Shown here: piece after piece, positions 1 to 39,920 of the stretch
Layout: every line of letters begins with the position of its first letter
Position numbering within the stretch: position 1 is the stretch's first letter
Assembly (NCBI GenBank): GCA_045541115.1
Contig: JAZQIM010000014.1
Coordinates: forward strand, 65,832 to 129,831
Reading direction: 5' to 3'
DNA: 64,000 bases
Origin: Candidatus Aphodoplasma sp.
GTDB taxonomy: Bacteria > Bacillota > Clostridia > UBA1381 > UMGS1253
Program-made: the position numbers and the translations under genes
Notes under the pieces: model-generated
What the model was told of the DNA's origin: nothing
What the model saw: the letters and a program-made list of their open reading frames with translations, nothing else
The model's database searches: none

Positions 1-279
1 ATCTTTTTCAAAGTCAATGTCAGAGCCGTCTGCCTTTTGACATACCATATCGATATGGCCCTGCAGAATAACAGGTTTAGCATTTTTTAGCTCGCCTGTT
101 CCATCTTTATATATAATAACATTTAAAGCTTCATCTTTGATATATCTTAAGTCGTTTGCTTTTGCAAACTCTACACAAAATCCGCTTATTTCTTTCATGT
201 TTCTCGATCCATGCGGGATTTTGCATATTTCTTCAAAAATTTCAAAAACCCTTGAAGTTTTAATGTCTGAATTTTTCAT
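1..279 (-). CDS. pepD: Aminoacyl-histidine dipeptidase (PepD, M20 family). Only the N-terminal 93 codons are present; the gene runs off the left edge.
   Basis: Own minus-strand translation from ATG 279 (GGTGGA upstream) gives MKNSDIKTSRVFEIFEEICKIPHGS...PVILQGHIDMVCQKADGSDIDFEKD. This resembles the PepD N-terminus (IPHxS, QxHxDMV). Confidence 0.7.
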   Translation of the reverse strand, partial: MKNSDIKTSRVFEIFEEICKIPHGSRNMKEISGFCVEFAKANDLRYIKDEALNVIIYKDGTGELKNAKPVILQGHIDMVCQKADGSDIDFEKD

Positions 280-316
280 TTTATCCACCAGCTTTTAGTT
301 TAATTGAATTCTTTTT

Positions 317-1168
317 CTACATAACCGACAAAACAATACCGACAATAATTATAAATGCGCAGGCAAGCTTCCTTATTATGTTCCTTTCCTTATAAATCAG
401 CTTTCCTAATAGTATTGTAACTACAACATCAACCTGTTTTATAATAGTCATCGTTACAACCTGGCTTGATGGATCAGAATTTGCTATAAAAAGCAATCTG
501 TCTCCTATTACAAGAAGAAGGCTAAGCACATATAGCCACGGATTTGTAAATGTCTTTTTTACTTCAAATTTTTCTCTTTTAATAAGCATATACAAAAGAT
601 AAAACACCGATAAAAGAAGCATAAACCAAAATTGCAATGCCGATGATGTAATTTCTCCTGTCGACATTATGTATTTATCAAGAGTACCTGAAACGGAGTT
701 GAAAAAACAACTGAGCAAAATATAAACTATATATTTATAGTTATACTCCTCTTTATTTTCAACCTTATTTTGATTTACAAAATATAAGCCGAGTATAATA
801 AGAAACAAACTCGCAACTGTTTTAACTGTAAGACTTTCATGCAAAAACAATATGCCAAACAAAATCGAGAAAACAACTCTTGACATATCGAACACACCGT
901 AAATGCTTACAGGAACTTTCTTTAGACTTTTAAAGCTTAATATCCATGCAAAAAATACGGCAAGCGATTTTACAATCATCCACACAAAAATTGAGGGCGT
1001 AAAATTAAACGCCCCTTCTGCTGTTAATGCCGATGCTAAAAATCCGATAAATGTATATCCAAATAATGCCGATAAAACGTTTACATCTGCTAGTATAGCC
1101 TTTTTTATAGGCGCTCTTGTACCCTTTATGATACCATATAATAAAACAAATATTACCCAAAGCTCCAT
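317..1168 (-). CDS. EamA/DMT-superfamily membrane transporter
   Basis: 283 aa and about 10 hydrophobic segments arranged as two EamA-like halves. Substrate unknown. Confidence 0.65.
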   Translation of the reverse strand: MELWVIFVLLYGIIKGTRAPIKKAILADVNVLSALFGYTFIGFLASALTAEGAFNFTPSIFVWMIVKSLAVFFAWILSFKSLKKVPVSIYGVFDMSRVVFSILFGILFLHESLTVKTVASLFLIILGLYFVNQNKVENKEEYNYKYIVYILLSCFFNSVSGTLDKYIMSTGEITSSALQFWFMLLLSVFYLLYMLIKREKFEVKKTFTNPWLYVLSLLLVIGDRLLFIANSDPSSQVVTMTIIKQVDVVVTILLGKLIYKERNIIRKLACAFIIIVGIVLSVM

Positions 1169-1204
1169 AAATTTTTCCTCTTTTTGTATGTTATGTCAGG
1201 TGTT

Positions 1205-1473
1205 TTATTTATCTTCTGCCCATTTAGCACTACCCGACATAAGCGTGACATCCTCTGATGTTACGCTTAATAATCCCCTCTCTATATCAAGCACTTTCAT
1301 ATTGCCATCTTCAAATTCTATACGGCATTTGCATGGCTTTACAGAAGTAACAAAGGGTGTATGATTCGCCATAACTGCAAGCTCACCTTCGACACCTCTT
1401 AATGATACACATACAATTTTTTCATCAAACAAATTACCGTCAGGTGTTGTGACAACAAATTTAAAACTTTTCA

Positions 1474-1474
<1 letters not shown>
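1205..1474 (-). CDS. atpC: F1 ATP synthase epsilon subunit, short form (89 aa, N-terminal beta-sandwich only)
   Basis: Last gene of the atp operon, with its start overlapping the atpD stop at 1474. Sequence VVTPDG...VSLRGVEGELAVMANHTPFVT is typical of the epsilon N-domain. Confidence 0.85.
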
Positions 1475-2883
<1,409 letters not shown>

Positions 2884-3687
2884 TTACATACCACTTCCGG
2901 CAACTATTTCTGTGATTTCCTGTGTGATGCTACCTTGTCTTGCGCGATTATATTCAAGTGTAAGATTTTCAATCATCTCCGACGCATTCTTTCCTGCAGA
3001 ATCCATCGCAAATCTTCTTGCCACAACTTCACAAGTAAAGCTCTCTCTTACTGCCTCAAGTATCTTTGAAGCAACATATTCTTCGATAAGCGCCTCAAGT
3101 ATCGTCTTTTCATCAGGTTCAAAAATGATATCCGCCTTAGAGTTAATATCCTTTTTCTCCAAAGGCATTATCCATGTTATCTGAGGCTCCTGAACCATCA
3201 TCGAAGTATATTTCGTTGATACAATTCCAACCTTTTCGTAATTGCCTTCTTTAAAGTCATTGCATAATTTTTTTGCAAGTTCAATCGCCTGTGAATACGA
3301 ATATCCTTCAGCCTTTGTAATCTCCTTTTTATATCGTTCGGATGCTCTCTTGCCGATAGGATAAATATCGTTAAAATCAATTTTTTCAGTCACTTTAAAT
3401 ATGTTTGAGTTATATCCACCCGCAAGTCCGCGGTCACCTGCAATTACGATGAGGCAAATCTTTTTTTCCTCGCCACTTTTCATATATTCGCTTTTCTCGC
3501 ACACTCTCGACGATGAAAGCATATCAATCGTTGTTTGCATAGCGCTCGCGTACTGACGGCTCTTTGTCATCGCATTCGTGGCACCTCTGATTTTTGCAGA
3601 TGCAACAAGCCCCATCGCCTTTGTCAAGTGCAAGGTTGAGTCGACACTTTTTATTCGGTTTTTCAAGCTTTTTGTATCTATACCCAT
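2884..3687 (-). CDS. atpG: F1 ATP synthase gamma subunit
   Basis: 267 aa, located between atpA and atpD. Gamma-type terminal helices (IKSVDST...TKAM at the N-terminus, ARQGSITQEITEIVAG at the C-terminus). Confidence 0.9.
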   Translation of the reverse strand: MGIDTKSLKNRIKSVDSTLHLTKAMGLVASAKIRGATNAMTKSRQYASAMQTTIDMLSSSRVCEKSEYMKSGEEKKICLIVIAGDRGLAGGYNSNIFKVTEKIDFNDIYPIGKRASERYKKEITKAEGYSYSQAIELAKKLCNDFKEGNYEKVGIVSTKYTSMMVQEPQITWIMPLEKKDINSKADIIFEPDEKTILEALIEEYVASKILEAVRESFTCEVVARRFAMDSAGKNASEMIENLTLEYNRARQGSITQEITEIVAGSGM

Positions 3688-3697
3688 AGTATCACTC

Positions 3698-5185
3698 CTA
3701 CATCTCGCAAAGAGCTTGTTTTAGTGTTTTGACATCTTCATCATCAAAGAAATTATCTTCAATTCTCTTTAGCCATGCTTCATACTTTCTCTCAAGTAAA
3801 TCGTATAATTTCTGCTCATAATCCGAAACCTTGTCTACTGCTATATCATTAAGGTATCCGTTAACAACAGCATAAACGATTGCCACCTGACATCCAACTC
3901 GAACAGGCGCATTTTTCTTTTGCTTTAACACTTCAACGATTCTTTCGCCAAGTGCAAGACGCTTTTTCGTATCTTCATCAAGGTCACTTCCAAACTGTGC
4001 AAACGACTGTAGCTCACGGTATTGTGCATACAAGAGCTTAAGTTCGCCCGATACTTTCTTCATCGCCTTAAGCTGCGCAGAACCACCAACACGACTTACA
4101 GATATACCGGGGTTTATTGCCGGCATAATACCTGCGTGGAAAAGCTCTGTTTCAAGGAAAATTTGTCCGTCAGTTATCGATATAACATTAGTCGGAATAT
4201 ACGCCGACACATCGCCCGCCTGTGTTTCGATTACAGGAAGTGCAGTTATCGAGCCGCCACCATATTCCGGTGCAACACACGCCGCTCTTTCAAGCAATCT
4301 TGAGTGAAGGTAAAATACATCGCCGGGATATGCTTCCCTTCCGGGCGGACGACGAATAAGTAGTGAAAGCGCACGATATGCAATCGCATGCTTTGACAAA
4401 TCGTCATAAATTATAAGAACGTCTTTGCCTTGTTCTCTGAAATACTCTGCCATAGCACATCCTGAATATGGCGCAATATACTGTATTGGCGCAGTTTCAG
4501 AGGCCGATGCAGATACTATGATTGTATACTCCATTGCTCCGGCTTTTTCAAGGTCATTTGCAAGCTGTGCAACCGCCGTATTCTTCTGTCCGATTGCAAC
4601 ATATATGCATATAACATCTGTATTTTTCTGATTTATAATTGTATCTATTACTATCTCTGTTTTACCTGTCTGTCTATCACCTATAATAAGCTCTCTTTGT
4701 CCTCTGCCAATCGGAATCATACTGTCAATAGCTTTGATTCCTGTTTGCAGCGGAACAGATACGCTCTTTCTTTCGATTATTCCGGGGGCTTCCGATTCAA
4801 TAGGTCTTGTCTGTGTTGTTTCAACAGGTCCTTTTCCATCTATAGGATTTCCAAGCGCACCTACAACTCTGCCTATTAACTGCTCACCAACCGGCACAGA
4901 AACAACCTTTCCTGTGCGATAAACTTTTGAACCTTCGTGTATATCGTCTGAATCAGACAAAAGTGCAACGGAAACTGTTTCATCTTCAAGATTTTGCGCC
5001 ATACCGATACTGCCGTTTTCAAACTCCAAAAGCTCGCTTGCCATACATGAACGAAGTCCATATACCTTTGCAATACCGTCGCCAACTAAAATGACACTGC
5101 CTGTTTCCTGCATCTCCATTTTCGACTCATAATTTTTAATTTGTTCTTTTATAATCTGGCTGATTTCATCAGGTCTTATATTCAT
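3698..5185 (-). CDS. atpA: F1 ATP synthase alpha subunit
   Basis: 495 aa. Walker A GDRQTGKT; alpha-type sequence throughout. Confidence 0.97.
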
Positions 5186-5721
5186 TTTCGTATCACATCC
5201 TTTACATTCTTAAGATGCTCTTTTATGCTTGCGTTAACTGTTTTGCCATCAATTTCGATAATAAGACCGCCAAGTATTGTCTCATCTACTTCGCATTTTA
5301 GCATAACAGTTCGTCCGCTCATTTTTTCTAACTTATCTTTTAAAGCTGTTTTTTCTTCTTCTCTTAATTCTACAGCGCTTATTACCTTTGCACATGACAT
5401 CTTCTTTATTTCATTTAGAAGTTTTTTATATTCCTCCACACATAAATCAAATTCCTTGATATATCTTCTTTCACATAAAAGCTTAACAAAAGACAAAACA
5501 TGTGTGGGCACATTATCCGAAAAGGCATTGTCGAGCACATGGCATCTTTCACTTAAAGGTATTCCGGGCGATGACAGAAGCTGCAGATACTGCGGATTTT
5601 CGCTAAAAATATCATTTAACAAGTCAAGCGATTTTGCATACTCCTGCTCTTTGTCATTTTCCATCGCCAATGCAAACAAGGCCTTCGCATATTCTTTAAC
5701 TACATCACTCATTTTCATCAC
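5182..5721 (-). CDS. atpH: F1 ATP synthase delta (OSCP) subunit
   Basis: 179 aa helical protein in the expected operon position between atpF and atpA; start and stop overlap the neighbouring genes. Confidence 0.85.
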
Positions 5722-6220
5722 CTATCTTCTGAATAACTGAATCAATAAGTTCACGATGGTCATCAGCATTTATTTCTCTTTCCAAAATTTTATTTGCAAG
5801 TGCCGTAGAAACCTCAACAATTTCATTCTTGATTTCTTCTTTTGCCTTTTTCTTTTCATAGACAATCTGATTTTCAGCCTGACGCATAATAACATCGGCT
5901 TGCTCTTTTGCCTTTGAAACGATTAGCTCGCCTTGTCTTTTCGCGCTTTCCTGGGCATCTTTAATCATTTCATCAGTTTCGCTTTTAACTGTGCTGATTT
6001 TTTCGTCCCACAAGACTCTATTTTCCTGTGCAATACGCTTCGCTTCGTCTGCATCGGCATATTTTGCATCAAGCTCTTTTTGTCTGTTTGAAAGCATTTT
6101 GTTGACAGGCTTAAAAAGAAATTTCTTTACGAGAAGAAATAATATCAATAAATTTAATAACGAAATCACTATCTGCCATATGTTGACAGAAATAACTTCT
6201 AACGATTGCATAGTCTTCAC
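5705..6220 (-). CDS. atpF: Fo ATP synthase b subunit
   Basis: 171 aa with a single N-terminal TM helix followed by a long charged coiled helix; expected operon position. Confidence 0.85.
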   Translation of the reverse strand: MKTMQSLEVISVNIWQIVISLLNLLILFLLVKKFLFKPVNKMLSNRQKELDAKYADADEAKRIAQENRVLWDEKISTVKSETDEMIKDAQESAKRQGELIVSKAKEQADVIMRQAENQIVYEKKKAKEEIKNEIVEVSTALANKILEREINADDHRELIDSVIQKIGDENE

Positions 6221-6607: not shown

Positions 6608-7486
6608 TTACGCCTTTGCGCGTTTTTTTCTTTTCATATACAATTCGTAAGGAAATCCCCCCGAAATATACATCATTGTAAGCATTGCAAAAATGTATGC
6701 CTGTAAGCATCCGCTGAATATATCAAAATATATTGATAAAATCGCAGGAAGTCCAATTTGCAAAAACGGTATATCGCCCAAAAATCCAGGCAGTACAGAG
6801 AAAATCATATTTGACAATCCGCCAAGCCCCGCCGCAACAAGCACCGATATAACAGAGCCCGAAAGCACGTTTCCGTAATGACGAAATGCCATTGAAATAG
6901 GCGTCGCTATTTCGCTTATTACGTTAAGCGGTGCCATCAAAACAGGATTCGCAAAGCTTTTCACATACTCTATCGGACCGCACTTCATTTTATAATATGT
7001 TATTAAAATAAACACAAGTATTGCCCACCCTGCGACGATGTTTAGGTCAGATGTCGGCGGATATAAGCCGAACAGAGTTACAAGACTTGAAAATGCAGAA
7101 AGAGCAATAATTGAAGCAATAAACGGCGAGAAAAACGAAAAATATTCTCCCATATTTCCTATAACCATTTTATTACACATTTCAACTATCATCTCTGCAA
7201 AATGATGTCTTTTAAGCCAAACACCCGATTTTATTCCGTGCACAAGGTATAAACATAAAAATGTAACCGAGATTATTACCATAAGTGAGTTTACCTGCGA
7301 TTCTGTAATCGGCAAATCCTGTATCGGCAATTTAATCGTGAAAAATATAAGTGCCCCCGAAATACTTATTCCTTCCTTTGCAGGCGTTGTCAACACCTTA
7401 AGCAATATGCTAAAACAAATCGGGACAAACATCATCACAATATAAATAATATCTATTATTTTAAATTTTATATTTAATTGTTTCAC
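6608..7486 (-). CDS. atpB: Fo ATP synthase a subunit
   Basis: 292 aa polytopic protein. The conserved stator Arg lies in the context SMAFRHYGNVLSG. Expected operon position. Confidence 0.9.
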   Translation of the reverse strand: MKQLNIKFKIIDIIYIVMMFVPICFSILLKVLTTPAKEGISISGALIFFTIKLPIQDLPITESQVNSLMVIISVTFLCLYLVHGIKSGVWLKRHHFAEMIVEMCNKMVIGNMGEYFSFFSPFIASIIALSAFSSLVTLFGLYPPTSDLNIVAGWAILVFILITYYKMKCGPIEYVKSFANPVLMAPLNVISEIATPISMAFRHYGNVLSGSVISVLVAAGLGGLSNMIFSVLPGFLGDIPFLQIGLPAILSIYFDIFSGCLQAYIFAMLTMMYISGGFPYELYMKRKKRAKA

Positions 7487-32127: not shown

Positions 32128-33003
32128 CTATTTCTCCGTGTCAAATTTTTCGTATACCTTATATTCGTCCCATATTTTTTCAAGCTTTTCAAAACTGTCA
32201 ACAACTTCGCTCTTCTTTTTCATGCTTATTGCTACCATAAGTGCATTTATAACGCTCAATGGCGCTACAAGTGAGTCAACAAACGATACCATATCGCTCT
32301 TTGCTACAAGTGACATATCTGCTGCTTCCGCTATGGGCGAAGATGAGCTGTCTGTTATTCCGATAACTGTCGCGCCCTGATTCTTGGCATAATCAATCGC
32401 CTTCAGTGTTCTCGTTGAATAACGCGGAAAGCTTATAGCAATTAAAACGTCGTCTTTTTCAATTCTGAAAATCTGCTCAAAAAGCTCACTTGCCGTACTT
32501 GTCTGCACGTGGCGTACATTCGGCGATATAAGGTTTAAATAAAAGCTTAAAAAAGATGCAAGCGCCGCAGAGCTGCGCACACCTAAAATATACACTCTTT
32601 TTGCATCTACTATAGCATCTGCAATCTTTGCAAACTCTACTCTGTCAATTTCATTTAGCGACAGGCGTATGTTTTCCATGTCGGCATCAAGCACGCTTTT
32701 CAATATGTCATTTTCCCCTATTCTGTCTGTCGCAACACCGACTCTTTGCGCCGCCGTAAGCTGTGTGCATATGATTGCACGAAGCGCTTTTTGCATGTCG
32801 GGATATCCGTCATAACCAAGCTCACGCGCAAAACGTACAACTGTCGATTCACTCACGCCTACTGATTTTCCAAGCTTTAGTGCCGTAATATATGCAGCTT
32901 TATCATATTGCTCGGCTATAAACTCTGCAATACGCTTCTGTCCTTTGCTGAAATTTTTCATATTGTCATTTATTCTCGAAAGAATATTATCTGACTTATC
33001 CAT
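32128..33003 (-). CDS. MurR/RpiR family transcriptional regulator
   Basis: N-terminal HTH_6 (GKSVGVSESTVVRFARELGY) plus a SIS domain. Confidence 0.85.
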   Translation of the reverse strand: MDKSDNILSRINDNMKNFSKGQKRIAEFIAEQYDKAAYITALKLGKSVGVSESTVVRFARELGYDGYPDMQKALRAIICTQLTAAQRVGVATDRIGENDILKSVLDADMENIRLSLNEIDRVEFAKIADAIVDAKRVYILGVRSSAALASFLSFYLNLISPNVRHVQTSTASELFEQIFRIEKDDVLIAISFPRYSTRTLKAIDYAKNQGATVIGITDSSSSPIAEAADMSLVAKSDMVSFVDSLVAPLSVINALMVAISMKKKSEVVDSFEKLEKIWDEYKVYEKFDTEK

Positions 33004-33043
33004 TTTTTACTCCTTACTGCTACTTTTTCATATAACATATATT

Positions 33044-33715
33044 TTACCAAACAAATGGTATTAAACGATACTTTATTTTTTTCTTGTATTCACAATATCC
33101 ATCCAGATTCTTCTCAAGAAATTCTTCTTCGCTTTTTAGTCTTTTAATAATTATATATGGATATGCAAGAAAAATTATAAATGAATATATCGAGCCCAGG
33201 ACAAGTGGCATCGACAAAAACATAAGCAGTGTCGCACTATACATCGGGTGTCTTACAACACTATATAGTCCCGTTTCAATAACCCTCTGATTCTCACAAA
33301 CTTCAATAACGCGGCTAAGATATTCGTTTTCCCTAATCACTTGTGCATAAAGAATATATCCGCAAAGAAAAATTATTACAGCAATAATAACCGCCTCTTT
33401 GGGCAAGGTGTACCATCGAAAACGAAATGTCAATCCCGCAACGATAAGCCCTGTTAAAAACATAATTGCGCTTAATATAACAAGCACCTTTTGTTCTCGA
33501 TGTTTTTCCGTTGCTTTCAATCTCTTTTTCAATAATTCAGGCTTTTTTAACATCATCACAATTCCTGTCAAAAGCATTGGCACAAACAAAATTCCCATAA
33601 ATAGCCATGCATTTTTGAAGAAAATGTCTCCGGCAGATAAAAAAAGCGACAAGCCAACTAAAATTATACCTGACAGCAGCTTTGTTATCGCCTGAACAAA
33701 TAATTTCATACTCAT
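33044..33715 (-). CDS. Isoprenylcysteine carboxyl methyltransferase (ICMT/PEMT)-family membrane protein
   Basis: 223 aa, 5-6 TM segments, C-terminal block ETGLYSVVRHPMYSATLL ... EEEFLEK. Appears to have its own -10 TATAAT about 50 nt upstream. Confidence 0.65.
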   Translation of the reverse strand: MSMKLFVQAITKLLSGIILVGLSLFLSAGDIFFKNAWLFMGILFVPMLLTGIVMMLKKPELLKKRLKATEKHREQKVLVILSAIMFLTGLIVAGLTFRFRWYTLPKEAVIIAVIIFLCGYILYAQVIRENEYLSRVIEVCENQRVIETGLYSVVRHPMYSATLLMFLSMPLVLGSIYSFIIFLAYPYIIIKRLKSEEEFLEKNLDGYCEYKKKIKYRLIPFVW

Positions 33716-33770
33716 ATGTTTTCTCCATAAATTTTATTTACCTTTTGGAAGCATTAACGCCTTGATTATA

Positions 33771-33803
33771 AAGACTGTGTAAACTGGATGACAGTCTTTT
33801 TTT
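33771..33803. repeat. Junction module H, copy 1 (hairpin aagactgt/acagtctt plus T7 on the plus strand), upstream of the ICMT-like gene
   Basis: 8-bp perfect stem, 12-nt loop, T-run on the plus strand. About 80% identical to 36431-36462. Confidence 0.7.
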
Positions 33804-33805
33804 AA

Positions 33806-33843
33806 ATTGCGAGGCATAAGGTTTAGATGCAGATCTTTTTTAA
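33806..33843. repeat. Junction module D, copy 1 (3' side of the RT gene)
   Basis: attgcgaGGcataaggtttagatgcaGATCttttttaa. It shares attgcga and a 17-nt identical core (33815-33831) with copy 2. Confidence 0.8.
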
Positions 33844-33866
33844 CTCCATATCACATAAAGTTAAAG

Positions 33867-34805
33867 TTAAAAAATATTTTGCTTTTCGGTAAATTTGATT
33901 TTATCTATCAACCATTTTTTATAACCCATCATTTCGACATTTGCCGCATCTACTGATAAAACATAATTAACCTTTCCAAGCAATTTTTTCAAATAATCTT
34001 GTTCACTTATATCGAGCTGTTTTTTCTGTAAATGAGATGCTACACCAAATTTTTTACAGTAATACAATTCCTGTCTGATTTTCTTTCTGTATGACAACGA
34101 TGTATTTATTTTTTCATTTACTATAATACCTGTAACAATCTGTTTTTGTCCTTTGCGAGCAACAGTCGTTTTTGCATCATTAAGATAAAAACCCATTTTT
34201 TTAAGCTCTTCTTTTACAAACTCAATCACTTCTCTGTGGTTAAAAGCACCTGAAAAAGTCATATCATCGCAATATCTGCTATATCTTATTTTTCTTTCTT
34301 TACACCATGCACCAACTGCATTATCAAAGTCTTTCATAATAATATTTGAAATAATCGGTGATGTTGGTGCACCCTGAGGCAAAGCATCTTTATATAAGCA
34401 AAGTATTGATAACAAAATACGATTCTTTTCTGAGTATTTTTCTTTAACAAAAACCTTTTCTTTAACCATAGGATAAATTATGTGGTCAAAGAAATGTCTG
34501 ATATCCAATTTAAGTATAGTATTTTGCTTAAGGTGTGGATAAGCATTCTTAACGGTTGAAGCACCATATTTATATGCTGTTGCATATGGTGAAACCTCTT
34601 CATATACAAGAAGTTTTTCAGCTATTCTTTTTTGCACTGCCTTCAAAAATTCATTTGGAACAGAAAGTTCTCTATATTCTCCGTTCTTTTTCAAAATTTT
34701 TGTTTGATAATAGTGTGAATGAATATGGTTGCTAAGCGAGTATAATGCTTTTGCTGAAACACCAAGGTCATTCGTCAAAGAGGAAAGCTCCTTATATACA
34801 ATCAT
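33867..34805 (-). CDS. Retron-type reverse transcriptase
   Basis: 312 aa from ATG 34805 (AGGAGG 8-13 nt upstream). RT blocks LDIRHFF and LPQGAPTSPIISN, and catalytic YCDD (nt 34263-34274). Retron signatures NAYPH (NAxxH, nt 34533-34547) and VTG (nt 34128-34136). No maturase or endonuclease domains. Confidence 0.88.
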   Translation of the reverse strand: MIVYKELSSLTNDLGVSAKALYSLSNHIHSHYYQTKILKKNGEYRELSVPNEFLKAVQKRIAEKLLVYEEVSPYATAYKYGASTVKNAYPHLKQNTILKLDIRHFFDHIIYPMVKEKVFVKEKYSEKNRILLSILCLYKDALPQGAPTSPIISNIIMKDFDNAVGAWCKERKIRYSRYCDDMTFSGAFNHREVIEFVKEELKKMGFYLNDAKTTVARKGQKQIVTGIIVNEKINTSLSYRKKIRQELYYCKKFGVASHLQKKQLDISEQDYLKKLLGKVNYVLSVDAANVEMMGYKKWLIDKIKFTEKQNIF

Positions 34806-34830
34806 TATTAAACTTTCCTCCTTTCTGAAT

Positions 34831-35009
34831 GTTGTGGAACAAAACAATGTGAATTACGATGTTGTGTAGCTGTATTTTAGCCCATGAAGTGGGCATTTAT
34901 ATACAGCGAAATCAACTTCGTATGAACGAAGTGAATACTTATAAATGTTACTTCCCAACAACGACTCGTTGTCGGTGTCAAAGTTTATTGACTTGCTCTT
35001 ATGTTCCAC
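34831..35009 (-). ncRNA. Predicted retron msr-msd non-coding RNA
   Basis: Read on the minus strand. a1 is GTGGAACAtAA (35009-34999) and pairs with a2 TTtTGTTCCAC (34844-34834). Candidate branching G at 34998 (or 34996, in an AGC). Hairpins at 34977-34992, 34955-34975, 34915-34932 and 34869-34907. a2 ends 29 nt before the RT ATG. A TATAAT box lies 7 nt upstream of a1. Confidence 0.55.
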
Positions 35010-35015
35010 TTTTTT

Positions 35016-35021
35016 ATTATA
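35016..35021 (-). promoter_or_regulatory. -10 box (TATAAT) positioned to start transcription at the a1 arm of the predicted retron RNA
   Basis: The minus strand reads tttcagTATAATaaaaaaGTGGAACA. The upstream region is AT-rich and has no good -35 hexamer. Confidence 0.35.
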
Positions 35022-35086
35022 CTGAAATCACTATCCTATAAAAAGGACAATGAAACAATAAACCAATTTGAGAACTACATATTACT

Positions 35087-35108
35087 TTTCGACATTATTC
35101 GACATTCT
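35087..35108. repeat. Junction module U, orphan copy upstream of the retron promoter (no ORF, RBS lost)
   Basis: Minus strand: gaaTGTCGAAtaaTGTCGAAAag, a tandem TGTCGAA at a 10-nt period. Confidence 0.7.
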
Positions 35109-35112
35109 TTAT

Positions 35113-35149
35113 ATTGCGACACATAAGGTTTAGATGCAAGTGTTTTTAA
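35113..35149. repeat. Junction module D, copy 2 (3' side of the 136-aa ORF, upstream of the retron RNA)
   Basis: attgcgaCAcataaggtttagatgcaAGTGtttttaa, with core at 35122-35138. Direct orientation, 1307 bp from copy 1. Confidence 0.8.
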
Positions 35150-35187
35150 GATCAAGTTCGTGGTCAGTAAGGAGTAAAAACATCTTT

Positions 35188-35598
35188 TCATTGGAACCTA
35201 TTCGTCGGAATACTTCCCCACCTTAATCCGCTATACAATAATGCATCAATGTGCGAAATCAAATTTAACAACACCATTTCTCTATTTATATCGAACTTAT
35301 GCTCATCGTCACCTTTAAATTCGTGAGATTTTTCATCTAAGTTTACAAATGTCTCCAAGGTTATATATTCTAACAGATTTGCTTCTGGTCCCACAATAAT
35401 ATCACCTTTTTCAAATGAGTAATATGGATTTGCAAACCCCACTTTTTCGGTTCCGTCGAGCAATGTGCATTTTATTTTCATACCATGACAATGCTTGATG
35501 GTAATTCTATTAATACTTTCTGTTTTTTCAATTTTACCATTTTTATAGTAAGTAATTATATTCATGTTGGTATATAACCTTTCTACAATATTTGACAC
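35188..35598 (-). CDS. Hypothetical protein (125-136 aa), directly upstream of the retron RNA
   Basis: The ORF track start at 35598 is a GTG; ATG 35565 (MNIITYYKNGK...) is an alternative start. Beta-rich N-terminal half and helical C-terminal half. No family recognised. Confidence 0.45.
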   Translation of the reverse strand: MSNIVERLYTNMNIITYYKNGKIEKTESINRITIKHCHGMKIKCTLLDGTEKVGFANPYYSFEKGDIIVGPEANLLEYITLETFVNLDEKSHEFKGDDEHKFDINREMVLLNLISHIDALLYSGLRWGSIPTNRFQ

Positions 35599-35600
35599 AC
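35578..35600. repeat. Junction module U, diverged copy at the 5' end of the 136-aa ORF
   Basis: Minus strand gtgtgtcaaatattgtagaaagg matches the 35904-35924 copy at 16 of 22 positions by my alignment. Confidence 0.45.
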
Positions 35601-35614
35601 TTTGCTATGCTTTA

Positions 35615-35642
35615 TGTTAAGTTAGGACAAAAGATTATTCTG
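35615..35642. repeat. Junction module G at the 3' end of the 85-aa ORF (covers the last codon, the stop and ~20 nt)
   Basis: Minus strand: cagaataatcttttgtcctaacttaacat. Confidence 0.7.
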
Positions 35643-35892
35643 TAACCTCTACAATTCCTTTTGACTCTAAAAATCCAATTAGCTTTTCAAGATATGCTAA
35701 TCGTTCGTGGTTTATCGGCGGATTTTCCATATATCCTAAATCACCACCAACACTTTCATAACTTTCTTCGCAATAACACATATGCAAAAGATATCCCCAT
35801 TCCAATTCAGCGCTACCTTCATTCAATAGCTTTTCAAATGTTTCAATCGGCTCATTTTCAAACATCATCATTATTAAATCATGTTCTTTCAT
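35635..35892 (-). CDS. Hypothetical small acidic protein (85 aa), immunity-protein-like in size and composition
   Basis: Good RBS (AAAGGAGA 9 nt before the ATG). No motif recognised. Confidence 0.45.
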   Translation of the reverse strand: MKEHDLIMMMFENEPIETFEKLLNEGSAELEWGYLLHMCYCEESYESVGGDLGYMENPPINHERLAYLEKLIGFLESKGIVEVTE

Positions 35893-35903
35893 TTTAAAGT
35901 TCT

Positions 35904-35924
35904 CCTTTCGACATCTTTCGACAC
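35904..35924. repeat. Junction module U at the 5' end of the 85-aa ORF (includes its RBS)
   Basis: Minus strand: gTGTCGAAAgaTGTCGAAAGGAGa, followed by the ATG. Confidence 0.75.
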
Positions 35925-35937
35925 ATCCATATGGTTC

Positions 35938-35965
35938 ATGTCGGATTAGGACAAAAATTATTCTG
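35938..35965. repeat. Junction module G at the 3' end of the PsiE-like ORF
   Basis: Minus strand cagaataatttttgtcctaatccgacat matches about 22 of 26 positions of the 35615-35642 copy. Confidence 0.7.
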
Positions 35966-36386
35966 CCTTCTCATTATCAGCAATCTCTACAAAACCGTCG
36001 GGGGTTTCTACCATATCATGACGATTGAACAAAAATCTTCTGACAACAAAAAGTATCGCAATAGCTGCAACTGTAATCAAATTTTCCCAAGGGGCAGCAT
36101 GTCCTACTATCAACTGTCGGGCAAGGGCAAACGCTAAAACCTCAATAATGGTTTCAGGGGTGTGCTTGCAAAGCATTTTTATAAGCTCAGCACCAATAGC
36201 AAGTGTAATTGCCCTATCCAAAATCACGACAAGCGAATCTATACCGTGTTCAATAAACGAAATATTAAACATATCTATCACTATCCACACAGCCAGAATG
36301 ACTACTGCAAGGCTCACAATAAGTGATATAAAAAGCTCTATAAGATAGCTTATCTCAAACATTTTGTCTTGAAGTTTTTTTCTCAT
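35958..36386 (-). CDS. PsiE-like (phosphate-starvation-inducible E family) small membrane protein
   Basis: 142 aa, four TM segments. The pattern AIGAELIKML ... LAFALARQLIV.H..PWE.L...AIAILFVVRRF parallels E. coli PsiE as I recall it. Confidence 0.5.
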   Translation of the reverse strand: MRKKLQDKMFEISYLIELFISLIVSLAVVILAVWIVIDMFNISFIEHGIDSLVVILDRAITLAIGAELIKMLCKHTPETIIEVLAFALARQLIVGHAAPWENLITVAAIAILFVVRRFLFNRHDMVETPDGFVEIADNEKAE

Positions 36387-36430
36387 AATATTTTCTCCTT
36401 TGTATTTGATTTTGCATTTATCCGTTTATG

Positions 36431-36462
36431 AAGACTGTATAATCCGGATGCCAATCTTTTTT
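36431..36462. repeat. Junction module H, copy 2 (degenerate), upstream of the PsiE-like gene
   Basis: aagactgtataatccggatgccaatctttttt compared with aagactgtgtaaactggatgacagtcttttttt. Confidence 0.65.
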
Positions 36463-37006
36463 AACAATAATTAGTGTAGAAATATCCCTTATTTACATAT
36501 TCACTAACCAAATCTGATTTTTTATCTATTTCACCTGTAACCAACTTTAAATATGTATAAAATATACGTATTTCTTCTCTATCCAAAGTCATAGTAAAAA
36601 CATTTGAACCCATAGCACCATCGTCGCACCAAAAATGAATATTAAAATCAACAGATATATCCAATGTTACAGAGCCATCCTTATACCAAACTTTACCCGG
36701 CTCACTGTATAATGTTGTTATTGGACTCATATCAAATTCAAAATCGGGTTCTGCAAATCTAACAGTGCATCTTTCTTTCATATTTCCTTCTAGCAAATCT
36801 TTAAATACACTTTTCAAATAGTCTATTTCATCGTTTAGAAAAGCCTCCCAACCTTCAATATTATAATTAATGTACTTACTTTTTAAGGAAAAGTTTGTGT
36901 TGCACCAATCATAATCTACAGTCTCTTCAGTCGGTTTTTTATAATTATATATTTCAAACCATAAGTCCACATCACATATATTCATATGCAATTTCAACTT
37001 TTCCAC
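36461..37006 (-). CDS. Hypothetical protein, tentatively WapI-like immunity protein
   Basis: 181 aa. The segment DYDWCNTNFSLKS...FLNDEIDYLKSVFKDLLEG recalls the WapI pattern DYWDANWLK...L..DLKRFYESLQKL. The true start may be an internal TTG or ATG (about 36994 or 36985). Confidence 0.35.
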   Translation of the reverse strand: MEKLKLHMNICDVDLWFEIYNYKKPTEETVDYDWCNTNFSLKSKYINYNIEGWEAFLNDEIDYLKSVFKDLLEGNMKERCTVRFAEPDFEFDMSPITTLYSEPGKVWYKDGSVTLDISVDFNIHFWCDDGAMGSNVFTMTLDREEIRIFYTYLKLVTGEIDKKSDLVSEYVNKGYFYTNYC

Positions 37007-37008
37007 CT

Positions 37009-37031
37009 CCTTTCAACAAATTTCGACATTC
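37009..37031. repeat. Junction module U at the 5' end of the 181-aa ORF (includes its RBS)
   Basis: Minus strand: gaaTGTCGAAAtttgTTGAAAGGAGG. Confidence 0.7.
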
Positions 37032-37067
37032 TTACTATCATCACCTTATCTTAAGCCAAAAACTCTA

Positions 37068-37385
37068 TTAGTCGTCTGCATCTTCATCAAACGCTTCAAT
37101 ATAAAAGCTTACAGGTCTAAAGCCGTCATTACATGAAATCATTGCCGACCTTTTATTTTTCATCCATCCATTATATAAATTTTCGCCGCCATGTGACAGG
37201 GCCATTACAAAAGAGGACATACTTTCCCAGGCACTATCACATAAACCATCGGGCTTTTTCCATCCGTTTGCGATAAAAGTTTGCCCTTCCTTCAAATCGC
37301 AGGCATGCTCTATCGGATTTTCATATTTTTCTATTAAATCATCATAACGGGCCATTCTCATAACTGTTATTCTGCATTTTTTCAT
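37068..37385 (-). CDS. TIGR04076-family small protein
   Basis: 105 aa. MKKCRITV...C.L.EGQTF...P.G.C..AW......CNDGFRPV.F.IE matches my recollection of the TIGR04076 consensus. Confidence 0.55.
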   Translation of the reverse strand: MKKCRITVMRMARYDDLIEKYENPIEHACDLKEGQTFIANGWKKPDGLCDSAWESMSSFVMALSHGGENLYNGWMKNKRSAMISCNDGFRPVSFYIEAFDEDADD

Positions 37386-37441
37386 AGTAATTCTCCTTTT
37401 ATAGTGCTACACTATTGACAAAATCAAAAATCTATCAATTC

Positions 37442-37470
37442 ATTTTATCATTAAATCTACGGATAGTCAA
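37442..37470 (-). promoter_or_regulatory. Sigma-A-type promoter for the small-ORF array (TTGACT-17-TAAAAT)
   Basis: Minus strand: -35 at 37470-37465 and -10 at 37447-37442. It lies downstream of the GGDEF gene terminator and about 55 nt upstream of the TIGR04076 ATG. Confidence 0.5.
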
Positions 37471-37488
37471 TTTCATCCACAAAACTTT

Positions 37489-37525
37489 ATAAAAAAAGCT
37501 TTAAAACAATACGTTTTAAAGCTTT
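37489..37525 (-). terminator. Intrinsic terminator after the GGDEF gene, separating it from the small-ORF array
   Basis: 13-bp stem aaagctttaaaac/gttttaaagcttt with T7 on the minus strand. Confidence 0.8.
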
Positions 37526-37598
37526 TCGTTAAAGCACATTATTTCTTTCCGCAAACAAGTTCTATGATTAAAGCACCCATATCAATCATTAGAACAAA

Positions 37599-39920
37599 TT
37601 AGTCTTTGGCAAAAATCCAAAGGGTTTCATCGGCATCCTCACTGTTTTCATTTAGACTGTATATACTCAAAATTACCGTTTCTCCGTTCATTTTCTTATA
37701 CGTTATCTTTGGCGTTAACCCTTCTGCTATTTCTCTCTTTATTGCATCATAATTCAAAAAACTTATGACAGCCCTATGGAAATCAGGGTGCACATGCTCA
37801 TCTATGTATTCTTTCAAAAGATGAGAAAAATTATTTTCGTCCTCATTATATCCGAGATAAGACGGCATAAGAATGCGATGTGCATTGTCACTTACTAAAG
37901 AAACTCTGTAAATTCCATTATAATGTTCTTTTAAAACAGAAAGCATTGCATCAATTTCTCTAATTCCCGTTTTCGTCTGAACATATTTTTTATCAACATC
38001 TTTAGCTATGGTGCTCTGTTCCTTGTTCTGATAATACTGCGCTTTCGCCTCATACATTCTTATTTCCGCTTCGCGCACCATTTCTTCACAATTTGTATTC
38101 TGCTTTCTATATGACATACCGATAGCAACCTTGTAGTCCGTAGATTCTAATTGTTTAATAAATATTTGAACTTTTCTCTTTGCCCGCTCCTGTGTAACAT
38201 TTTTTGCAAAAACCAAGAACTCATCGCCACCCATACGGTAAACTCTATGCCCAAAAAATACTTCCTTTAGCGTATTTGCAATATAAATAAGCATTTCATC
38301 GCCTGCAGCATGGCCGTATTTGTTATTTCTTAAATGAAGTTCGTTAACATCAATATAAACACATGCAAAATCTTCCGGTTTTTCTTCATCGAGCAACAGA
38401 ATATCCTTTTTGTATGATACACGATTAAGTGCTCCGGTAAGTGAATCGGTCACAGCTGCCGTTTCCGTCCTATTTAAATGATTTTTATTATATATCGCTA
38501 TAGAAAAACATACTGCTACATCTTCTAACAGGTCTCTTGCTGTGCGTTTTTTCTTTGTGTTTATAACACCAAGAACACTTGCATGATTGTTTTTATCTGT
38601 AATAGTTGCAAACGAAACATGATCTATTTTGTGTTCTTTCAACAATTCATAAAATTTTATGTTTGTTTTCATAAGGTGCTTATCAGGTTTAATATGCATA
38701 AATCCTACAGTTAGGTGGCTGGCACTGTACAGGTTTGCAGCATAGCGGAAAAGCTCACCAAGAAAGTACTTCTTTTCTTCACCTGCAAGAAGGTGAACTT
38801 TGAACGAAGGCATAACATAGCTATAATCTTCTCCGTCGGTATCAACAAAAAACGCAGATCTTGATGATGATAAACCTTGTACACTTTTTAATGCCTCAAA
38901 CACATTCCCATGTTGCTGATTGATTTCCAAAAGAAGTTTTCTAATCCGCGACGCATATGATATTACCTTTGCACGACGTTTTTCTACACTTAAAACAAAA
39001 AGCAAATACACTACGATAATCAATATCATTAATGCAAAAGTTACAAGCAGTATTCTTGAAATCTCGTGTGTTCTTGCAAAAACCTGAGACTCATACCTGG
39101 CAAGCAAAATGCCCCAGTCAAAATCTTCGATTGTAGAATAGTGAACATATAAATCTTCACCTGTAAATATTGATTTAAACGAAGAATATCCTTTATCTGT
39201 TGTAACAAGTTGCTCATATGAATAATCATCATTATATTTACGGTTTTTTAACTCTGATATCTCACCGGGATATCTGTTTATAGTATCAATAAGATATTTT
39301 CCGTCTTCTTTATCATAAACAAAAAGCTGTGCATCAAACTCTTTGGCCATATCATTATACTTTTTATTGATTGTTTCAATCTTAATAATGCCATACATCA
39401 TACCAACCGTTTTCCCATTCACCCTAATGGGAACTGCACTTCTGATAACCTCTTCGCCGGGAATAGAATAGCTTTGTGTTCTGCCGGTAATATGTTCGCC
39501 AATAAGCGCTTCATCTGCAAAGGAAATTTTGCCATCTAAATCATATGTTCCATCTTTTGTAATAAAGGTGTTATCCGGATTTAAAATTCCAATTCTTGAA
39601 AACAGACCAATGGGTTTAAACGAATCAAACATAAGACTATAACTTTCTCCGCCGGCATATAGTTTTGCCGCAAAGTTTGCCATCGTAATAAGATTTTCAC
39701 GATCAGACTTCATCTGGAGTGTCAAGTCGTCTTTAATCTGTTTCGTCTGTATATGAAGCATCTCATACGCCTCATTTTCTGCCTCATAGTAAAAAGAAGC
39801 AACCAACGATAAAAACACCACACATATTAGAAACGCAGCGACGATCGTGTAAAAATTATTATTTTGTCTATGCTTTTTTCCCCCATATTTTGTAGCCATT
39901 CTGTCAACATCTTCTTTCAT
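37599..39920 (-). CDS. Membrane sensor diguanylate cyclase (extracytoplasmic Cache-like domain, cytoplasmic linker domain, GGDEF domain, extra C-terminal domain)
   Basis: Two TM helices flank a ~250-aa extracytoplasmic region. The GGDEF domain has an intact YRMGGDEF. About 120 aa follow the GGDEF domain. Confidence 0.8.
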   Translation of the reverse strand: MKEDVDRMATKYGGKKHRQNNNFYTIVAAFLICVVFLSLVASFYYEAENEAYEMLHIQTKQIKDDLTLQMKSDRENLITMANFAAKLYAGGESYSLMFDSFKPIGLFSRIGILNPDNTFITKDGTYDLDGKISFADEALIGEHITGRTQSYSIPGEEVIRSAVPIRVNGKTVGMMYGIIKIETINKKYNDMAKEFDAQLFVYDKEDGKYLIDTINRYPGEISELKNRKYNDDYSYEQLVTTDKGYSSFKSIFTGEDLYVHYSTIEDFDWGILLARYESQVFARTHEISRILLVTFALMILIIVVYLLFVLSVEKRRAKVISYASRIRKLLLEINQQHGNVFEALKSVQGLSSSRSAFFVDTDGEDYSYVMPSFKVHLLAGEEKKYFLGELFRYAANLYSASHLTVGFMHIKPDKHLMKTNIKFYELLKEHKIDHVSFATITDKNNHASVLGVINTKKKRTARDLLEDVAVCFSIAIYNKNHLNRTETAAVTDSLTGALNRVSYKKDILLLDEEKPEDFACVYIDVNELHLRNNKYGHAAGDEMLIYIANTLKEVFFGHRVYRMGGDEFLVFAKNVTQERAKRKVQIFIKQLESTDYKVAIGMSYRKQNTNCEEMVREAEIRMYEAKAQYYQNKEQSTIAKDVDKKYVQTKTGIREIDAMLSVLKEHYNGIYRVSLVSDNAHRILMPSYLGYNEDENNFSHLLKEYIDEHVHPDFHRAVISFLNYDAIKREIAEGLTPKITYKKMNGETVILSIYSLNENSEDADETLWIFAKD

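Follow-up and report, generated by a model that had tools for sequence, protein, structure and literature searches.

The 64,000-nucleotide (nt) stretch analysed here, hereafter the window, comes from Candidatus Aphodoplasma sp. (GTDB lineage Bacteria; Bacillota; Clostridia; UBA1381; UMGS1253; GenBank assembly GCA_045541115.1, contig JAZQIM010000014.1, positions 65,832 to 129,831 of the forward strand) and contains an islet of small minus-strand genes that includes an Ec107-like retron. Our analysis suggests that this islet is probably one instance of a cassette-array system of an uncultured, spore-forming lineage of gut Clostridia, in which swappable units share a 5' element (U) with a putative Spo0A operator and a 3' element (G-mid-D), and are exchanged by recombination. 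Cassette exchange at the islet and at related arrays is supported by a retron unit that recurs, nearly identical, in five other flanking contexts, in line with the cassette exchange proposed by the original prediction, which was made from the letters of this stretch. All coordinates below are window positions, and the gene order of the islet is read on the minus strand.

Within positions 32900–37700, the top four families of direct repeats correspond to the four junction modules described in that prediction, U and H at 5' ends of genes and G and D at 3' ends (Table 1). Elsewhere in the 64 kb they are absent: the islet sites were the sole matches to degenerate D and H patterns (0.00 expected), the tandem U pattern TGTCGAANNNTGNCGAA (≤1 mismatch) gave three matches where 0.07 would be expected, each of them at the 5' end of a cassette and on the minus strand, and profiles trained solely on metagenome copies matched the window only within the islet. 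Three of the four predicted copies of U stood by sequence, while the diverged copy upstream of the 136-aa (amino acid) open reading frame (ORF), whose two boxes both carry mutations at the Spo0A contact positions, owes its assignment to its position. The tandem period of U is 10 nt rather than 11 nt. G-like stretches seen by eye after the GGDEF and TIGR04076 stop codons were discarded, their profile matches not being significant, and the spacer between the ICMT-like ORF and rpiR carries no module. As predicted, the coding sequences between the modules are unrelated, with every pairwise BLASTP E-value of the islet proteins above 0.2.

Alignment of 75 G-mid-D copies, combined with a tally of the sequence after D, yielded a composite junction that runs from the upstream stop codon through G, mid, D, a linker and U to the next start codon. 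The consensus is TTTTTAGTTCTAACTTGACAYGAAC for G and TTGACACCAAAAAGGTTT for mid; D consists of GCATCTAAACCTTAYGNNTCGCAA flanked by a T on either side (the 5' T invariant, the 3' T present in ≥90% of copies), both T's lying outside the search pattern GCATCTAAACCTTAYGNNTCGCAA; the linker is TATGGAT or TATAAAGA; and U reads TGTCGAA-N3-TGNCGAA-AGGAG. D is far more conserved than the sequence around it. Since both D junctions of the window also carry G-like and mid segments and match the G-mid-D profile, G and D belong side by side to a single 3' element and do not stand in for each other. The two G+U junctions of the window are the composite junction minus a segment of ~40 nt that comprises mid and D, and one gene is found with both sequels, G then mid and D or G then linker and U (L117 versus L118). 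Of 73 D copies, about half are followed by U and 11 by H; other sequence follows the remaining 23. An extra spacer module (…CTTGTCAAGTC(C/T)ATA(C/A)AATTTAAAAGA(T/A)TAGTTTG(C/T)CGATTTAT…) follows genes in L104 (1610–1700) and L118 (~60 nt upstream of its D), and the module set is thus larger than four. In L141 (375–500) and L088 (1350–1600) there are 'empty' units, namely D+U, a small terminator-like hairpin and again D+U, with no ORF between.

A metagenome scan with the D core found 74 copies on 60 contigs, about 50 of them from one project. The densest array has seven junctions in 3.9 kb (L136), and the longer contigs hold modules at one array or junction site each. Of 199 ORFs on these contigs, 167 are oriented like D. 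BLASTP clustering split the ORFs, whose median length is 200 aa, into 171 unrelated groups, and their Pfam content is very diverse (DUF559, PHP, GDSL lipases, beta-lactamase family, DUF4288, methyltransferases and others), with lipoproteins, a toxin–antitoxin pair and the retron also among the cargo. A PsiE-like protein 76% identical to that of the islet is encoded in the L161 array at a different position. No match to the junction was found among the known plasmids and phages of PLSDB and INPHARED, IMG/VR gave a single D match at a contig end, and the module sequences are absent from the searchable full text of the literature.

The original prediction had reasoned that a lack of enrichment of the modules at gene boundaries elsewhere, together with a locus invariant among related strains, would point to ancient local duplication only. 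We found the modules at gene boundaries at more than 100 further junctions, and cassette content that varies between strains. Ancient local tandem duplication alone, with ORFs diverged past recognition, would fit the resemblance of the two G+U junctions of the window (35.6 and 35.9 kb), which lie 324 nt apart; it is extremely improbable given that the modules flank >170 unrelated ORF clusters on other contigs, that the retron unit is 97.5–99% identical in other contexts, and that the islet proteins share no similarity. A second explanation, that the modules are selfish or domesticated intergenic repeats of the BIME/REP (bacterial interspersed mosaic element/repetitive extragenic palindromic), BOX or MITE-like (miniature inverted-repeat transposable element) kind, inserted between resident genes that they do not carry, draws on the mosaic combinations of motifs in the spacers, on a ~140-nt GC-rich element, derived from DUF559 gene ends, that is inserted in junctions, and on a DUF4288 ORF that occurs with and without modules. 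We judge it very unlikely, in view of the dense arrays, the absence of modules from the rest of the window and their restriction to one site per long contig, their absence from ~1.5 Mb of related genera, the lack of palindromic units, and the near-identity of entire U-ORF-D units in unrelated flanks.

Such near-identity is seen best in the retron cassette, which is composed of an orphan U, the retron non-coding RNA (ncRNA), the reverse transcriptase (RT) and G-mid-D. Among members of the window RT's 90% cluster, relatives of the unit lie in different flanks in L161, L162–L168, L087 and L169–L176, and the unit is about 97.5–99.2% identical at the nucleotide level in five other flanking contexts (Table 1). 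Its left edge falls at 35105 in four contexts (L087, L161, L162–L166) and its right edge directly after TCGCAA(T); in the fifth context (L169–L173), the match runs into the upstream D, to 35148. Three samples gave independent assemblies of the L162 context (L162, L163, L164; the L164 match stops at its contig end, at 33811), and Logan contigs of 1.1–1.4 kb contain little besides the retron cassette. The window and L161 also have the PsiE-like cassette in common, at only 81% identity against 99% for the retron unit, a contrast indicative of recent spread by the latter. In the window, the 136-aa cassette separates the 85-aa cassette from the retron; it is absent in L162, where a remnant abuts the retron, the last ~28 nt of the 85-aa ORF plus G remaining just upstream of it in L162–L164. 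Orphan U, already recognised in the original prediction as a copy that lost its ribosome-binding site (RBS) and has no ORF, retains perfect tandem boxes and accompanies the retron in every context.

The ncRNA region is conserved alongside the RT in all relatives and folds at −59.2 kcal/mol (z = −7.1 versus shuffles), with GTGGAACA pairing with TGTTCCAC. Neighbours of the retron differ in every context, so that it has no conserved partner gene, and the 136-aa and ICMT-like ORFs were rejected as retron effectors on the same grounds. Exchange extends to a second cassette, whose limits are again the start of U and the end of D and which L088 (891–1375) and L133 (8841–9325) share at 99.2% identity; in the 239-kb contig L133 it stands alone between the stop codon of a housekeeping gene and its terminator. 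More distant RTs (78–86% protein identity) occur in other genomes as solitary 1.2-kb insertions among housekeeping genes; those in L002 and L003 have no modules, and the clade L156–L160 carries G+H+U upstream. The L001 retron (86% identity), located beside spoIIGA/sigE, has a D-like sequence (GCATCTAAA…), a linker and a U-like sequence upstream and TTGCATCTATCCCTT downstream (5640–5760, 6930–6960). These remnants, seen by eye and below the profile threshold, are suggestive only, and native spoIIG 0A boxes may confound the U-like resemblance.

The same ends on every cassette suggest exchange by recombination on those ends: homologous recombination, or a recombinase encoded elsewhere, would swap, insert or delete cassettes between arrays. 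Breakpoints lie at several module edges, after G, and once inside U (the chimeric U of L162), and the DUF4288 ORF is found with D+U, with G+U and, in L104, without any module. This scatter fits recombination anywhere in shared sequence. In the 12 kb upstream of the window array, Pfam detected no recombinase or integrase among 10 ORFs, and the genes called up to 8 kb from the L161, L162 and L169 arrays include no integrase family; a single IS30-like gene was seen across the 60 contigs.

A site-specific, integron-like platform, with a recombinase encoded elsewhere acting at D-linker-U and the regulatory reading secondary, would explain the sharp, reproducible boundaries (left edge at 35105, right edge at TCGCAA(T)), a 7–9-nt D–U linker that, like an overlap region, changes independently of the sequences flanking it, the solo insertion in L133 with no module on its left, the conservation of D far beyond its surroundings, and the 'empty' D+U+terminator units of L141. 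We nevertheless regard it as unlikely, given the lack of a recombinase within 12 kb upstream in the window or within 8 kb in L161 and L162, the breakpoints after G, inside U and around module-less ORFs, and the lack of conserved structure or covariation in the 75 G-mid-D copies (RNAalifold: −0.53 kcal/mol, four trivial pairs). An attC-like fold was considered and dropped; an AAGGTTT/AAACCTT hairpin around GCATCT, seen by eye, is lost in many copies, both window copies included; nor was an integron GTTRRRY core seen by eye in the junction. Taking this idea further, the system could represent integron-like capture without an adjacent integrase, in which D-linker-U serves as the site for a distant recombinase or host factor, the 0A boxes tie expression, and even recombination, to sporulation, and an effector-less Ec107-type retron is currently spreading as a 1.3-kb cassette; we offer this as a speculative and distinctly doubtful scenario. 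The likeness to integrons and recombinase-associated islands drawn in the original prediction thus extends to the outcome but not to a demonstrated mechanism, there being neither a nearby integrase nor an attC-like structure.

Under the favoured reading, recombination between shared cassette ends, each cassette would also bring its own expression signals: a 5' module with a promoter-like element (H, or D plus a TATAAA/TATGGAT linker) followed by U, and a 3' module of G, often extended by mid and D. U looks like a candidate pair of Spo0A 0A boxes, TGTCGAA-N3-TGNCGAA, fused to an RBS. The published Spo0A box is TGTCGAA / TGNCGAA (PMC3485338, PMC7643835), and at the A2c promoter of phage Nf, Spo0A footprints two TGTtGAA boxes 3 bp apart (PMC2731898). 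U likewise consists of two direct boxes with the 7-bp core TGNCGAA, 3 bp apart: box 1 is TGTCGAA in 36–39 of 39 copies, and box 2 is most variable at positions 3 (T31/A4/G3/C1), which is the N of the published consensus, and 4 (C26/T11). Genomes with related retrons encode Spo0A, SpoIIGA/sigma-E and SpoVA, and SpoVAD and SpoVAC homologues encoded in the window make it likely that the host is itself a spore former. Phosphorylated Spo0A (Spo0A~P) bound to U would shut cassettes off at entry into stationary phase or sporulation, a repression modelled on abrB and the early promoters of phages phi29 and Nf.

Alternatively, U could be the site of another DNA-binding regulator, or a 5'-leader RNA element controlling translation. 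Box 2 overlaps AGGAG, the upstream promoter is only a predicted one, and C4 of box 2, a Spo0A contact position, is T in 11/39 copies. This alternative appears improbable, since box 1 is an exact TGTCGAA and box 2 varies at the consensus N, the TGTtGAA variant and the 3-bp spacing match the Spo0A-footprinted Nf site, orphan U keeps perfect boxes without RBS or ORF, which argues against a purely translational role, and an Rfam search of 32–39 kb (E ≤ 1), the retron ncRNA region included, gave no match.

Regarding the promoter, H has the consensus TTGGCA-N18-TATA(T/A)A across 22 copies and looks like a promoter-like element; a promoter scan flagged window H copy 1 (CTGTCA-18-TATAAT), and the spacing fits that of sigma-A hexamers (17±1 nt). 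Its earlier description as a hairpin module does not hold, as the GACTGT/ACAGTC hairpin is peculiar to one copy and not kept among the 22, and H was also rejected as a terminator hairpin. In H-then-U junctions box 1 begins 3–6 nt after the −10, from which we infer that U would occupy about +1 to +20 of the predicted promoter. The start of D aligns with H (T-T-G-[G]-C-A-T-C-Y-A) and the linker TATAAAGAA is the same as the −10 region found at H-U junctions, so that D is most simply read as a diverged copy of an H-type promoter module. Compared by eye with the consensus sequences of sigma-F, G, E, K and 54, D showed no convincing fit to a sporulation sigma factor. Overall, the reading of junctions as predicted promoter, Spo0A operator and RBS is a well-grounded inference from sequence.

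Several side observations concern these elements. Four large phage contigs (IMG/VR, 135–163 kb; L151, 8801–8828, and L152, L153, L154) carry TGTCTAA-AAA-TGTCGAA-TTT-TGTCGAA-AGGAGG followed by ATG, with a terminator upstream, one conserved gene downstream and no D or G; U can therefore stand alone. Upstream of L088 cassette genes (40–100, 3040–3110), iteron-like tandem repeats (GTGCCGACAAAAA ×2–3, GCCGATAAAA ×3) form a different tandem-box module in the place of U. A perfect TGTCGAAA inside the RT coding sequence (…GCAAATGTCGAAATGATG…; 33932–33939), also kept in L087, is probably due to chance, being a single box.

Set against the cassette-array reading are several points. The modules, at 20–75 nt, are short substrates for homologous recombination, and the solo cassette of L133, with no module on its left, is unexplained by flank homology. 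The comparison data are all metagenome assemblies, in which repeats can yield chimeras. On the regulatory side, no spo0A gene lies in the 64-kb window, the start-site position of U is derived solely from consensus hexamers, and D, the most conserved piece, has poor promoter geometry, with 20–21 nt to TATAAA, which makes its promoter activity doubtful.

The islet is low in GC, with a content of 0.29–0.38 over 33.0–37.4 kb versus 0.41–0.43 in rpiR, and one of its five small ORFs matches an immunity family (WapI-like). Exact-sequence look-up of the ICMT-like, TIGR04076 and RpiR proteins returned no record. The closest relatives, which are Ca. Aphodoplasma and one Oscillospiraceae metagenome-assembled genome (RpiR 82–83% identical), keep rpiR and its downstream genes and share nothing of the span from the ICMT-like gene to the GGDEF gene; profile search found no modules in these genomes (~1.5 Mb of related genera), so that comparison at the level of cassettes is impossible there. 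A 16-nt perfect inverted repeat (33004–33019 / 35165–35180, 2.1 kb apart) flanks the ICMT-like gene and the retron. One arm is the ribosome-binding region of rpiR (CAGTAAGGAGTAAAAA); the other, exactly complementary to it, is the G-like segment that follows the stop codon of the 136-aa ORF (TTTTTACTCCTTACTG), and this G copy differs from the G consensus exactly where the complementarity requires it. The repeat could reflect chance, anti-Shine-Dalgarno pairing or a rearrangement scar.

Other side observations relate to the arrays outside the window. The ~140-nt GC-rich element has palindromic ends (GCCTTCCCCTTGAGGGGAAGG ... CTCCTCAAGGAGAAGCCTTT) and is inserted in junctions of L088 (1402–1535, 2890–3020), L104, L112, L119 and L136; its ends match the flanks of a DUF559 endonuclease gene (L088 3700–4140), and it resembles a derivative of a DUF559 mobile gene from which the ORF is missing. 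DUF559 is the joint commonest Pfam family in the arrays (4/142 ORFs). L088 itself (1–4266, MEGAHIT), with cassettes for a 226-aa protein, a 133-aa protein, the retron, a 184-aa membrane protein and DUF559, overlaps itself exactly at its two ends over 141 nt, which is the k-mer size, and is either a 4.1-kb circle of five cassettes or a collapsed repeated junction. Arrays that hold the retron also carry a gene with an anti-Pycsar Apyc1-like metallo-beta-lactamase fold (weak Pfam match) and a Phd/Fic pair (L162 11184–11951; L161 9108–9724), and their cargo therefore leans toward conflict systems.

Table 1 Features of the islet and its neighbours in window coordinates, repeat families, and occurrences of the retron unit in other contexts
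Feature	Position	Strand	Evidence and remarks
GGDEF protein	37599-39920	-	Pfam
TIGR04076 protein	37068-37385	-	NCBIfam
U copy 1 (ATGTCGAAATTTGTTGAAAGGAGG), two 0A-type boxes 3 nt apart plus RBS of 181-aa ORF	37006-37029	-	U-only profile, E=1.2e-4
181-aa ORF, WapI-like immunity family	36461-37006	-	PF24716, E=1.2e-9, 39 bits vs cut-off 27
H copy 2 (TTGGCA, 18 nt, CATAAA); 181-aa stop directly before, PsiE-like ORF after	36425-36461	-	Profile, E=2.1e-8
142-aa PsiE-like membrane ORF	35958-36386	-	Pfam
G copy after PsiE-like stop (ATTTTTGTCCTAATCCGACATGAAC)	35934-35958	-	G-only profile, E=0.021
Linker CATATGGATG and U copy 2 (TGTCGAAAGATGTCGAAAGGAGA), upstream of 85-aa ORF	35901-35933	-	E=9.6e-5
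85-aa ORF	35635-35892	-	No family hit
G copy after 85-aa stop	35609-35635	-	G-only profile, E=0.0016
Degenerate U (TGTCAAATATTGTAGAA)	35578-35597	-	E=4.6, not significant; placed by position
125-aa ORF (136 aa from upstream GTG)	35188-35565/98	-	No family hit
G-like and mid segment after 136-aa stop	35139-35182	-	G-mid-D profile 35114-35184, E=9.1e-14
D copy 1 (TGCATCTAAACCTTATGTGTCGCAAT)	35113-35138	-	Repeat, pattern and alignment
Orphan U (TGTCGAATAATGTCGAAAAG), preceded by linker TATAAAGA	35085-35104	-	E=3.6e-5
Retron cassette (orphan U, ncRNA, RT, G-mid-D), 1,300 nt	33806-35105	-	Identity across contexts
Retron ncRNA (msr-msd), terminal inverted repeat GTGGAACA / TGTTCCAC, TATAAT just upstream	34834-35009	-	Fold
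Retron RT, Ec107-like, YCDD core	33867-34805	-	PADLOC RT_Ec107-like, E=9.6e-128
G-like and mid segment after RT	33832-33875	-	G-mid-D profile 33807-33877, E=9.5e-12
D copy 2 (TGCATCTAAACCTTATGCCTCGCAAT), right end of retron cassette	33806-33831	-	Repeat, pattern, cassette match
H copy 1 (CTGTCA, 18 nt, TATAAT), upstream of ICMT-like ORF	33765-33801	-	Promoter scan 10/12; profile, E=1.4e-6
223-aa ICMT/PEMT-like membrane methyltransferase, last islet gene	33044-33715	-	Pfam
rpiR	32128-33003	-	Pfam
D repeat	33798-33840, 35105-35147		43 nt, 84% identical, spacing 1307
U repeat	35083-35104, 35902-35923, 37007-37028		22 nt, three copies
H repeat	33766-33802, 36426-36462		37 nt, 84% identical
G plus linker repeat	35597-35632, 35921-35956		36 nt, 72% identical
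Retron unit, window	35105-33806		Upstream 136-aa ORF, G-mid-D; downstream H, ICMT-like
Retron unit, L161	35105-33798		99.2%; upstream GGDEF/EAL ... G; downstream Phd/Fic toxin–antitoxin pair
Retron unit, L087	35105-33806		98.4%; upstream unrelated ORF, G; downstream U, DUF4288
Retron unit, L162-L164	35105-33767		97.7% (L162/163), 98.8% (L164); upstream GH127, 85-aa-cassette remnant, G; downstream H, Mem_trans (L162/163)
Retron unit, L169-L171	35148-33806		96.7-97.5% (L169 97.5%); upstream 79-aa ORF, D; downstream U, 180-aa ORF
Retron unit, L088	Window D through most of RT		89.5%; upstream D+U, GC-rich insert, D; downstream G-like, H

Among known systems, the arrays recall integrons in their dense, co-oriented runs of small unrelated ORFs separated by a conserved repeat of ~60–110 nt, in the conserved element at the cassette 3' end, and in the occurrence of whole cassettes in different arrays, with content varying between strains. 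They differ in that no intI-type integrase adjoins them and in that the junction lacks an attC-like imperfect palindrome and R''/R' cores; it also supplies promoter-like sequence, operator and RBS, whereas integron cassettes are mostly promoterless. To our knowledge, integrons have not been reported in Firmicutes, and the host here is a Clostridium-class Firmicute. The rAID-1 clusters of Bacteroidales (Ross et al., bioRxiv 10.1101/471110), whose defining feature is an XerD-like recombinase at the 5' end, are similar in their low-GC co-oriented gene runs, in repetitive spacers 'reminiscent of integrons' and in a structure suggesting gene acquisition, and the islet holds one WapI-like immunity gene; however, no XerD-like recombinase was found near the window, L161 and L162 arrays, the cargo of the related arrays appears broad rather than mainly made up of immunity genes, and the phylum is different and the repeat unrelated. 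Mobile promoters (Nijveen et al., PMC3575422) likewise place near-identical upstream regulatory sequence before non-homologous genes, but here the reused 5' piece comes with a conserved counterpart at the 3' end, in arrays, and moves with the gene. The operators of abrB and the phi29/Nf early promoters (PMC2731898) share with U two direct 0A boxes 3 bp apart overlapping the core promoter, and phi29/Nf are a precedent for mobile DNA with 0A boxes that follows the sporulation state of its host; the putative site here, by contrast, is fused to an RBS and copied before dozens of unrelated cassettes. As in BIME/REP elements, extragenic spacers are assembled combinatorially from a few short motifs, although BIMEs are palindromic and genome-wide and our modules are non-palindromic and confined to arrays. 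Finally, Ec107 (Retron-Eco5) has a YCDD core and comprises ~1.3 kb of ncRNA and RT with no partner gene, in an intergenic location with no mobile element nearby (PMC6868368, PMC7736814). The window RT is closest to the Ec107 profile and shares the YCDD core, the size of the unit, the lack of a conserved partner gene and the intergenic setting away from mobile elements; its unit, however, is framed by U and G-mid-D and recurs in five other contexts.

Taken as a whole, the system is a variant of cassette-array and mobile-promoter systems in a previously undescribed form. A fixed-ended 1.3-kb unit, present in the window and in five further contexts, offers a concrete and testable route for the spread of Ec107-type retrons, and integron-like capture, if true, would explain how 'immobile' retrons reach new intergenic sites. 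The conserved D core provides a simple handle for finding such arrays in metagenomes. The arrays resemble a platform for the capture of accessory genes whose junctions also supply expression signals; if U is indeed a Spo0A operator, acquired cassettes would arrive pre-wired to the master regulator of stationary phase and sporulation, which would be a neat solution to the control of horizontally acquired genes.

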